Source: Escherichia coli
GTDB lineage: Bacteria; Pseudomonadota; Gammaproteobacteria; Enterobacterales; Enterobacteriaceae
Length of the DNA: 64,000 nt
Direction: 5' to 3' (one strand)
Assembly: GCF_013315695.1 (NCBI RefSeq)
Contig: NZ_CP054353.1
Part shown: piece after piece, positions 34,714 to 38,789 of the stretch
How the letters are laid out: each line of letters opens with the position of its first letter
Numbering within the stretch: the stretch's first letter is position 1
Notes under the pieces: generated by a model
Told to the model about the DNA's origin: nothing
Database searches by the model: none
What the model saw: the letters and a program-made list of their open reading frames with translations, nothing else
Position numbers and translations under genes: made by a program

Positions 34714-36738
<2,025 letters not shown>

Positions 36739-36799
36739 TCAATGCTAAAAACCCCCGACAAGCGGGGGTTCGAAGAGGAGTTAATTTGCCTTAAGTGTA

Positions 36800-37798
36800 T
36801 CAGGCGTTGGCGTCTTTGACTTCGCGGATGATGTCCTGGTACTCGCGCAATTTCTGCGGAGTCATCATACGGCGCTGATCGTCAAGCACTACACCGCCCA
36901 CTTCATCGGCAATATGCTGCGCAGATTGCAGCATCAGCTTGAAGTTCTGCAGCTCGTCACCGTAAGACGGTACCTGCATAAAGATAGTGACACCCGGAGT
37001 AGTGAAATCCTTCATTTCAGGATCAAAGGTTCCCGGTTTCACCATATTCGCCAGGCTAAATAACGCCGGGCCGCTGCCATCCGGGCTAAGATGACGATGG
37101 TAAATATTCATATCGCCAAAAATGAAGCCCGCTTGTTGAATGCTGTTAAGAAGCAGTTCACCGTTTAGCTCGCTACCGTGATGCGCCGCGACGTTCATGA
37201 TAATCACCGCTTCTTTGCGCTTCGGTTTATCCATAACTGGAGCCGGTTCCGCTACAGGCTCAGGCTGTGGTGCCGCTACAGGCTCTGCAGGCTGGAAAGC
37301 CTGTTGTGCCGGTTGCGGTGCTGAATGCACTGGCTGCGGCGCTGATGCGACCTGTGGCGAAACTGGCTGCTGCAACGGCTGTTCAGGCTGCGGCTGATAG
37401 GCAGGCTGCTGCACGGGTTGCTGCACCGGCTGCGCTGGACGCGGAGCATGTTGCGGCGGTACCTGAGCTTCAGGCGGCTGCTGGACCGGTTGACGCGGCT
37501 GCGCAGACGCATAAGGCGGTTGGTACTGGTGTTGCGGCGACGGACGAGCAGCCTCATGCTCCTGGGCGTTAGCCGGGGCATGATTCACGCGGTGAACTCG
37601 AACCTCACCAACGCCCTCATCATCTTCGACATCCTCGTCATAAGAATCGTCGTCACGTTTTGACTTCATTCGTTTTAATGGCCGATCGCGGAACATAGAA
37701 GATCGTTCTTTACGGCTGGTCCAGAAACCATGTACCAGTAAAGCGATTATGGCGATCGCGCCAACAATGATTAATATCAGACGCAAATCCTGCATCAT
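36800..37798 (-). CDS. zipA: cell division protein ZipA (FtsZ membrane anchor), 332 aa here
   Basis: ORF 36800-37849; chose tandem ATG ATG at 37798 ([15 protein letters not shown] anchor); charged region, long P/Q-rich linker, C-terminal FtsZ-binding domain. Confidence 0.9.
37200..37560 (-). repeat. low-complexity P/Q-rich coding repeat (ZipA linker)
   Basis: Reiterated CAGCCG/CAGCAG-rich units encoding PQ(P/A)VQQP-type repeats; biased composition visible on both strands. Confidence 0.5.
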
Positions 37799-38027
37799 TA
37801 TATTCTCTGTTGTTCTAACACCTTGCCACCACGGCAAACATTTACTCACTAAGAGTATTTGCCGATTACCTCAAGTGCAAGTGCACTATTAACTTTCACA
37901 GCACAAAGATAGATGAAATCGTGCTTTTTGCTGTTTTTTCGAACATATCCTAACTGTCCATTGCGCAATTACCCGGTAAAATACGCAGAATTTTCCTGGG
38001 ATTGGTCAAAAGGAGCTCATCCTGATT

Positions 38028-38789
38028 ATGGTTTCATCATTCACATCTGCCCCACGCAGCGGTTTTTACTATTTTGCGCAAGGCTGGAAGCTCGTCTCGC
38101 AACCTGGGATTCGGCGTTTCGTTATTTTACCGCTGCTGGTCAATATTTTGTTGATGGGGGGCGCATTCTGGTGGCTATTTACGCAGCTCGATGTCTGGAT
38201 CCCGACGCTCATGAGTTATGTTCCGGACTGGTTACAATGGCTGAGCTATCTGTTGTGGCCTCTGGCAGTCATCTCCGTGCTGTTAGTGTTTGGCTATTTC
38301 TTCTCAACGATTGCTAACTGGATTGCCGCTCCGTTCAACGGTTTATTGGCTGAACAACTGGAAGCAAGATTGACTGGCGCTACACCGCCAGATACCGGGA
38401 TTTTCGGTATCATGAAAGATGTGCCGCGAATCATGAAACGCGAATGGCAAAAATTTGCCTGGTATCTGCCGCGCGCAATTGTATTGCTAATTCTTTACTT
38501 CATCCCTGGTATTGGGCAAACCGTCGCGCCGGTACTATGGTTCCTGTTTAGCGCCTGGATGTTAGCCATCCAGTATTGCGATTACCCCTTCGATAACCAC
38601 AAAGTGCCGTTTAAAGAGATGCGCACCGCCCTGCGCACACGCAAAATCACCAATATGCAGTTTGGTGCTTTAACCAGCCTGTTTACGATGATCCCGCTGC
38701 TTAATCTGTTCATTATGCCCGTTGCCGTTTGTGGCGCGACGGCGATGTGGGTCGATTGCTATCGCGATAAACACGCCATGTGGCGGTAA
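38028..38789 (+). CDS. cysZ: sulfate transporter CysZ, 253 aa
   Basis: Polytopic membrane protein immediately upstream of cysK. Confidence 0.9.

Follow-up and report, generated by a model that had tools for sequence, protein, structure and literature searches.

Introduction

ZipA binds the C-terminal peptide of FtsZ and is essential for cell division. Its gene is textbook knowledge, as are its proline- and glutamine-rich (P/Q) tether and the domain that binds FtsZ. Two kinds of described systems come close to the variation reported here. One is the low-complexity unstructured spacer of other division or envelope proteins, exemplified by the C-terminal linker of FtsZ, whose length and sequence vary between species while the flanking folded or binding modules are conserved. 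FtsZ is a different protein from ZipA. The other is the simple-sequence-repeat contingency locus, which has in common with zipA a change of length by misaligned repeats inside a coding region. Unlike contingency loci, zipA is devoid of a homogeneous tandem tract, its length changes are rare and in frame, and the gene is not switched off.

The domain map of ZipA from Escherichia coli K-12 comprises a transmembrane segment (residues 7-28), a charged domain (29-85), a P/Q domain (86-185) and an FtsZ-binding domain (186-328) (PMC6904479). The same article, citing Ohashi et al. 2002, describes the P/Q domain as a tether that is flexible and unstructured (PMC6904479). In the literature library searched, no description of length polymorphism of zipA was retrieved. 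Length alleles of the gene are already present in public annotation, and polymorphism is expected of a disordered linker.

The zipA gene of the window

The window analysed here is a stretch of 64,000 nucleotides of E. coli DNA. An open reading frame on its minus strand extends from a tandem ATGATG (37793-37798) to a stop codon (36800-36802) and translates into 332 amino acids, exactly as the first-pass annotation had counted. Its DNA is 100% identical to the annotated zipA of the E. coli type strain ATCC 11775, and the gene is an ordinary E. coli zipA in its type-strain form of 332 aa. The protein matches the Pfam family PF04354 (ZipA_C) over residues 198-321 (E=3.2e-46, 156.8 bits against a cutoff of 23 bits), the ZipA chains 1F46, 1F47 and 1F7W of the PDB match residues 189-332, and the 328-aa PDB chain 9iue is a full-length match. 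The gene is flanked by cysZ and ligA, the same pair as in every E. coli locus examined. The gene and its domains are laid out as follows.

36800..37798, minus strand: zipA coding sequence, 999 nt including the stop codon, 332 aa counted from the first ATG of the tandem pair
37715..37780, minus strand: N-terminal transmembrane anchor (aa 7-28), placed by the domain map of PMC6904479, with the residues of the K-12-type allele
37544..37714, minus strand: charged domain (aa 29-85), placed by the domain map of PMC6904479
37232..37543, minus strand: P/Q-rich linker (aa 86-189), delimited by composition, repeat statistics and mapping of insertions and deletions
36803..37231, minus strand: C-terminal globular FtsZ-binding domain (aa 190-332), placed by the Pfam PF04354 and PDB matches

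Anchor and charged region are both present, residues 1-119 being those of the K-12-type protein, and the C-terminal domain is identical to that of the K-12-type protein. Binding of the FtsZ C-terminal peptide and an essential role in division are predicted for the window allele as well. A 349-aa reading frame from an upstream GTG was considered as an alternative start and rejected, as the ATG is the start given by RefSeq in all loci examined. The N-terminus from the annotated ATG is conserved in 82 of 84 loci scanned; the remaining two showed no such start. A promoter and terminator scan of 36650-38100 yielded nothing bearing on the linker.

Two principal length alleles

The K-12-type zipA measures 987 nt and encodes 328 aa (as in DH10B, ET12567 and PDB chain 9iue), the K-12 length with which the first-pass annotation had contrasted the 332 aa of the window. 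Gene position and the order of transmembrane, charged, P/Q and FtsZ-binding segments are the same in both proteins, and the amino-acid differences are confined to the linker: one extra PVQQ unit in the window protein and two substitutions (R120 in the window versus H, S152 versus P). Across the gene there are 12 other nucleotide differences. The sole difference in length resides in one 12-nt unit, where CCG GTG CAG CAA CCC GTG CAG CAG of the window stands against CCG GTG CAG CAG of K-12. Alignments place the imperfect tandem pair as follows.

37406..37429, minus strand: imperfect tandem pair of 12-nt units encoding PVQQ-PVQQ, made up of CCGGTGCAGCAA (37418-37429) and CCCGTGCAGCAG (37406-37417)

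The exact position of the 12-nt deletion is ambiguous across the 8-nt repeat GTGCAGCA, an exact copy of which lies at either end of the lost segment.

The distribution of the two forms was determined in complete E. coli genomes, zipA being found in 5,425 of 5,426 (5,427 records). A 201-nt query from the window across the PVQQ site and a reciprocal K-12-type query were used, and short and long forms were told apart by the footprint of the matches in the 90-95% identity band. With the window query, 3048 records fell into this band, all with a 189-nt footprint among the matches listed; at higher identity the matches listed had 201-nt footprints, bar two partial matches. With the K-12-type query, 2313 records fell into the band and, among the matches listed, the footprints were of 201 nt, bar one of 199 nt (strain FCI5) and a partial one of 198 nt. 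The short form makes up about 56% of the records, the long form about 43% and other forms 1.2%. Long alleles occur in strains that we take to belong to phylogroups B2 (ATCC 11775, CFT073) and E (O157:H7, O55:H7), short alleles in strains presumably of phylogroups A (K-12, a BL21 derivative) and B1 (H19).

All long alleles examined share a CAA-CC[C/T] internal structure, which argues for their descent from one form and against repeated duplications of the short allele. The site is occupied in E. albertii and in two further Escherichia lineages by 18-nt QPVQQP units, of which there are two or three, and the first unit ends with CAA. The lineage MOD1-EC7003 carries a single unit of different sequence, and for this reason the argument on polarity is not unanimous. 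Judged from these four Escherichia lineages, in a scan of species representatives that comprised neither the main E. coli representative nor E. fergusonii and E. marmotae, the two-unit (long) state was probably the original one in E. coli, and the K-12 form would be a derived 12-nt deletion. K-12 thus appears to be the shortened form and not the reference state. For the most part, the contrast of 332 with 328 aa reflects an old split into two alleles along lineages and not a freely varying repeat number.

Rare alleles and their junctions

Alignment across the linker failed for 64 of the 5427 records. Junction-specific 45-47-mers and direct inspection allowed the assignment of 59 of these atypical records to the following deletion alleles.

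300 aa: 84-nt deletion, 30 genomes from human, bovine and fly sources, including the O103 strain ML775
309 aa: 69-nt deletion on the long background, 22 genomes, including an O25:H4 strain, ZH063 and SaT040
305 aa: 69-nt deletion with the same junction as in the 309-aa allele, on the short background, 2 genomes
308 aa: 60-nt deletion, 3 genomes
314 aa: 54-nt deletion, 1 genome (strain GF43)
295 aa: 111-nt deletion, 1 genome (strain EM10-18-28)

The O25:H4 strain is presumably a member of ST131. The zipA gene of FCI5 is annotated as frameshifted; within its second PVQQ unit 2 nt are missing and neighbouring bases are substituted, probably through an error in the consensus. In the protein database, in-frame variants of 301, 303, 304, 305, 310, 323, 333, 335, 349, 351, 354, 355 and 375 aa are labelled as E. 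coli, draft assemblies extending the range of ZipA alleles up to 375 aa. There, 827 contigs carry the exact 309-aa sequence and 371 carry that of 308 aa. The singleton alleles of 295, 314, 354 and 375 aa may include assembly errors.

All large length variants found map to the P/Q linker. Linker length is not identical across E. coli strains, and the polymorphism proposed in the first-pass annotation stands in this respect; in place of a freely varying repeat number there is mostly an old two-allele split, with rare larger in-frame insertions and deletions. Every analysed indel is a multiple of 3 nt. Six of the seven analysed deletions are bounded by exact direct repeats of 7-9 nt, and all four analysed insertion alleles are tandem duplications. 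The repeats involved in the junctions are all present in the window sequence, where those of the larger events lie at these positions.

37476..37483, 37404-37411 and 37365-37372, minus strand: three copies of CAGCAGCC, end points of the 60-nt and 111-nt deletions
37496..37504 and 37427..37435, minus strand: two copies of the 9-nt repeat GCGCAGCCG, end points of the 69-nt deletion
37428..37434 and 37332-37338, minus strand: two copies of the 7-nt CGCAGCC, end points of the 84-nt deletion
37530..37539 and 37449-37458, minus strand: pair of CGCCGCAACA, bounding the 81-nt segment duplicated in the natural 355-aa allele
37365..37374 and 37404-37413, minus strand: pair of TGCAGCAGCC, bounding the 39-nt unit of the natural 354-aa allele and including the third CAGCAGCC copy

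The 60-nt (308 aa) and 111-nt (295 aa) deletions both end in an exact 8-nt repeat, CAGCAGCC, and the 69-nt deletion of the 309-aa and 305-aa alleles in the exact 9-nt repeat. The 84-nt deletion of the 300-aa allele amounts to 96 nt when compared with the window allele. At the 54-nt deletion of GF43 there are 2 exact nt of homology within an imperfect 14-nt repeat. The insertions of 51, 81 and 141 nt each repeat a segment perfectly in tandem, the homology at their boundaries being 6, 10 and 0 nt, respectively, and the 78-nt insertion of the 354-aa allele consists of two extra copies of the 39-nt unit, which is thus present three times.

Repeat content of the linker

The 104 residues of the linker include 31 P, 26 Q, 16 A and 10 V (30% Pro, 25% Gln), and the commonest of its 104 codons are CAG (19) and CCG (16). 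The first-pass annotation had seen in 37200-37560 a low-complexity linker encoded by reiterated CAGCCG/CAGCAG units. The P/Q-rich, low-complexity coding and its position were confirmed, and the tandem hexamers were not. Tandem Repeats Finder detected no array in 36800-37800 with the score lowered to 30, the lowest allowed, and the picture of tandem hexamers was dropped on this ground. CAGCCG occurs five times and CAGCAG three times in the linker, dispersed, and the longest unbroken run of CAG-(CCN/CAR) hexamers counts 2 units.

Short exact repeats are nevertheless abundant. The linker contains 25 exact 8-mer pairs, compared to a mean of 1.3 (maximum 7) in windows of equal length from ligA and 0 in the C-terminal domain of ZipA. 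Codon shuffles of the linker gave 13.7 +/- 6.3 pairs, 55 of 1000 reaching the observed 25, which is borderline; redrawing synonymous codons for the same protein gave 21 +/- 8.6 pairs, from which the observed 25 does not differ significantly. The excess of 8-mer repeats is mostly due to amino-acid composition and, as it does not significantly surpass the level dictated by the protein, gives no sign of a DNA built for instability.

The linker is not a microsatellite in the sense of a head-to-tail array of a 1-6-nt unit, nor does it behave as a phase-variable contingency locus: the analysed alleles differ by multiples of 3, and 98.8% of the records fall into two alleles. Of a minisatellite-like coding repeat, with a unit of 10 nt or more, there are minimal traces only: the units of variable copy number are the 12-nt PVQQ (two or one in E. 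coli), the 18-nt QPVQQP (one to three in other Escherichia) and the 39-nt unit (one, or three in one isolate). Most alleles are deletions between dispersed repeats and not changes in the count of a unit.

ZipA linkers in other species

In representatives of 79 Enterobacteriaceae species, the linker measures 75-127 aa, with 29 distinct lengths and a median of 101, compared to 85-89 aa for the N-terminal part and 143-144 aa for the C-terminal domain. Mean identity to the window ZipA is 59% in the linker and 85-88% in the N-terminal part and the C-terminal domain. As in the window, ZipA of other Escherichia and Enterobacteriaceae combines a conserved N-terminal anchor and C-terminal domain with a linker of a median P+Q fraction of 0.55. 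Other Escherichia have 1, 2 or 3 copies of the 18-nt QPVQQP where E. coli has the PVQQ pair, and Intestinirhabdus has a longer run. Constant termini and a variable linker fit the published view of the P/Q domain as a flexible tether that does not depend on an exact length (PMC6904479).

Origin of the length variation

The length polymorphism is very probably best explained by the misalignment of short dispersed repeats, combined with an in-frame filter and a tolerant linker. Because the peptide consists of about 55% Pro+Gln, the linker DNA is crowded with direct repeats of 7-10 nt in codon register. Judging by the junctions, which bear the classic mark of misaligned short direct repeats, two such repeats would misalign, by replication slippage or short-homology recombination, and the intervening stretch would be removed or duplicated. 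Since zipA is essential, only in-frame products would survive and out-of-frame products would be lost. A wide range of lengths would be tolerated because the P/Q domain acts as an unstructured tether that joins the membrane anchor to the FtsZ-binding domain, and some variants, if nearly neutral, may persist in whole lineages. The smallest such event would be the loss of 12 nt between two copies of GTGCAGCA, which turns PVQQ-PVQQ into PVQQ. The spectrum of surviving alleles suggests that the linker may be a hot spot of slippage. Of the slippage-prone tract described in the first-pass annotation, the origin by misalignment is upheld by the repeats at six of seven deletions and by the four tandem duplications; its hexamer unit is not, and there is no microsatellite.

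That the variants are not real alleles but errors in sequencing or assembling a low-complexity tract can hardly be maintained. Certainly the 2-nt loss in FCI5 resembles a consensus error, several of the extreme alleles occur once each and the 375-aa form lies on a contig of 3.5 kb. The two main alleles, however, are each found in thousands of finished genomes. The 300-aa form is carried by 30 complete genomes and the 309-aa form by 22; these were deposited by different submitters and come from human, bovine and fly sources, the exact 309-aa protein being found on hundreds of contigs (827). All changes are in frame, and repeats of 7-10 nt are far too short to mislead an assembler. A microsatellite-type slippage that changes the number of units in a CAGCCG/CAGCAG hexamer array is very improbable too. 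Linker length does differ among strains, CAG and CCG are the commonest codons (19 and 16 of 104) and both hexamers recur (five and three times), but Tandem Repeats Finder found no array and no run goes beyond 2 units. Moreover, no analysed E. coli allele has gained or lost 6 nt; the changes are of 12, 51, 54, 60, 69, 78, 81, 84, 111 and 141 nt and occur between dispersed repeats or as long duplications.

The alternative to be taken most seriously, possible albeit on the doubtful side, is that each indel arose once and that homologous recombination moved short zipA patches between lineages (NY1601, 19-5, and the 305 versus 309 and 308-aa pairs). The 69-nt and 60-nt junctions were each found on both long-type and K-12-type SNP backgrounds, a sign of recurrence or of exchange. 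In its flanks, strain 19-5 differs from H19 and O8:H28 by a single nucleotide on either side, over 2121 nt upstream and over 1790 nt downstream; it is nevertheless long and has the CAA-CCC of other long alleles, which suits import or retention and not a fresh duplication. The short allele of NY1601, found in about 5 genomes, sits on a SNP background that is closer to a long allele (2 differences) than to K-12 (6). The nearest discriminating SNPs on either side of its indel, 139 nt upstream and about 90 nt downstream, are both in the non-K-12 state, so that import would require a patch of less than about 240 nt that carries only the indel. The junctions shared across SNP backgrounds, 19-5 and NY1601 could reflect short recombination tracts instead of repeated mutation. 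At least 12 distinct indel alleles exist, and repeated mutation in the linker tract is established regardless. Misalignment of dispersed repeats in a tolerant linker also has to be set against adaptation of linker length, by which lineages would keep tether lengths that alter the positioning or bundling of FtsZ. The persistence of short alleles in apparently successful clones (30 genomes including the O103 strain, 22 including the O25:H4 strain) and a species range of 75-127 aa around a median of 101, a hint that length is under some constraint, speak for it. Yet the variants occur in 1.2% of genomes and differ in both place and size without a common pattern, as expected for nearly neutral indels that hitch-hike in clones, and ZipA is cytoplasmic according to the domain map and therefore no obvious target of diversifying selection. 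Adaptation of this kind is unlikely. Linkers of natural E. coli would range from about 67 to 147 residues, roughly twofold, and it is slightly less likely still that some of these alleles, such as the 23-aa deletion of the O25:H4-containing clone or the 28-aa deletion of the O103-containing clone, are maintained through a fitness-relevant effect on Z-ring-to-membrane spacing or division timing.

Implications

The value of these data as a discovery is small and their uses are modest. The length of 328 aa is not the norm of the species. The K-12 length is probably a derived deletion, and pipelines for annotation or target conservation in which it serves as the ZipA standard would flag 43% of genomes as different. 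The in-frame series of 295, 300, 305, 308, 309, 314, 328, 332, 349, 351, 354, 355 and 375 aa represents a ready set for tether-length tests of Z-ring anchoring. The 300-aa and 309-aa deletions could act as PCR-size markers of their clones.

Sequence variation outside the P/Q-rich linker

Length variation of ZipA extends beyond the P/Q-rich linker. One database protein of 333 aa (P0008), found on 11 contigs, one of them a 4.7-Mb genome, carries an additional E in AQEEHE, and another of 335 aa (P0010) has a duplicated VED within the charged domain, in its acidic DEDVEDDE segment. Both are small in-frame insertions located outside the linker, and the charged region is therefore also subject to short-repeat indels. 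A larger, hydrophobic insertion of 16 residues, resembling RISLFFFVVLFSPPSR, was found directly after the transmembrane helix, likewise outside the linker, in a 348-aa protein from an ENA metagenome contig (P0013). This variant is represented by a single metagenomic contig, which may be chimeric or erroneous.

Atypical zipA records

Among the 5,426 complete E. coli genomes searched, zipA was present in two copies in one genome and without a match in one other, and two full-length matches fell on records whose replicon type is given as plasmid. These cases could be explained by replicons assigned the wrong type, by duplications, or by assemblies that are incomplete or carry the wrong label. The annotation of strain FCI5 (NZ_CM172810.1) lists zipA (positions 622-1618 of the extracted locus) as a pseudogene with a frameshift. 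The lesion, a change of GTGCAGCAGCC to GTGCG--CGCC, lies within the second PVQQ unit; as the gene is essential, an error in the consensus sequence is the probable cause.

Reading frames and spacer around zipA

Three features of the window were considered in and around the zipA reading frame:

37267-37581, both strands: two 101-aa ORFs overlapping the linker, the first on the plus strand, the second in a different frame of the minus strand
37799-37849, minus strand: upstream extension of zipA by 17 codons to a GTG, 349 aa in the mechanical ORF list
36745-36772, minus strand: G+C-rich hairpin followed by a U run, between the zipA stop (36800) and the ligA start (36729)

Long spurious ORFs are to be expected in G+C-rich low-complexity coding DNA, and nothing suggests that the two 101-aa frames over the linker are genes. 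The GTG start was rejected, the RefSeq start of zipA being the ATG; that the extended frame equals in length a real 349-aa allele, which arises from a 17-aa duplication in the linker, is mere coincidence. The hairpin in the zipA-ligA spacer, AACCCCCGC-UUGUC-GGGGGUU followed by the U run, looks in its sequence like an intrinsic terminator. It was left unflagged by a simple terminator scan of positions 36650-38100, and the entire 68-nt spacer folds with an energy of -19.2 kcal/mol and a z-score of just -1.85.

Mosaic and divergent loci

In strain 19-5 (NZ_CP047010.1), which was isolated from swine, the flanking cysK-cysZ and ligA regions each differ by 1 nt from those of strains H19 and O8:H28. 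Its zipA is the long allele with two PVQQ units, and the encoded protein is the same as that of O157:H7 SS17. Judged from these sequence comparisons, the zipA region of strain 19-5 is a local mosaic.

The ZipA protein of a genome labelled 'Escherichia coli strain SCPM-O-B-8794' (NZ_JAATUR010000016.1) has 320 aa and is just 93% identical, and its gene shows the arrangement of two 18-nt QPVQQP units seen in Escherichia other than E. coli. This strain is probably a member of one of the cryptic lineages of Escherichia. The run is longer in the linker of Intestinirhabdus alba, which contains at least four consecutive QPVQQP units, a genuine tandem repeat at the peptide level; the corresponding position in E. 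coli is occupied by one or two PVQQ units.
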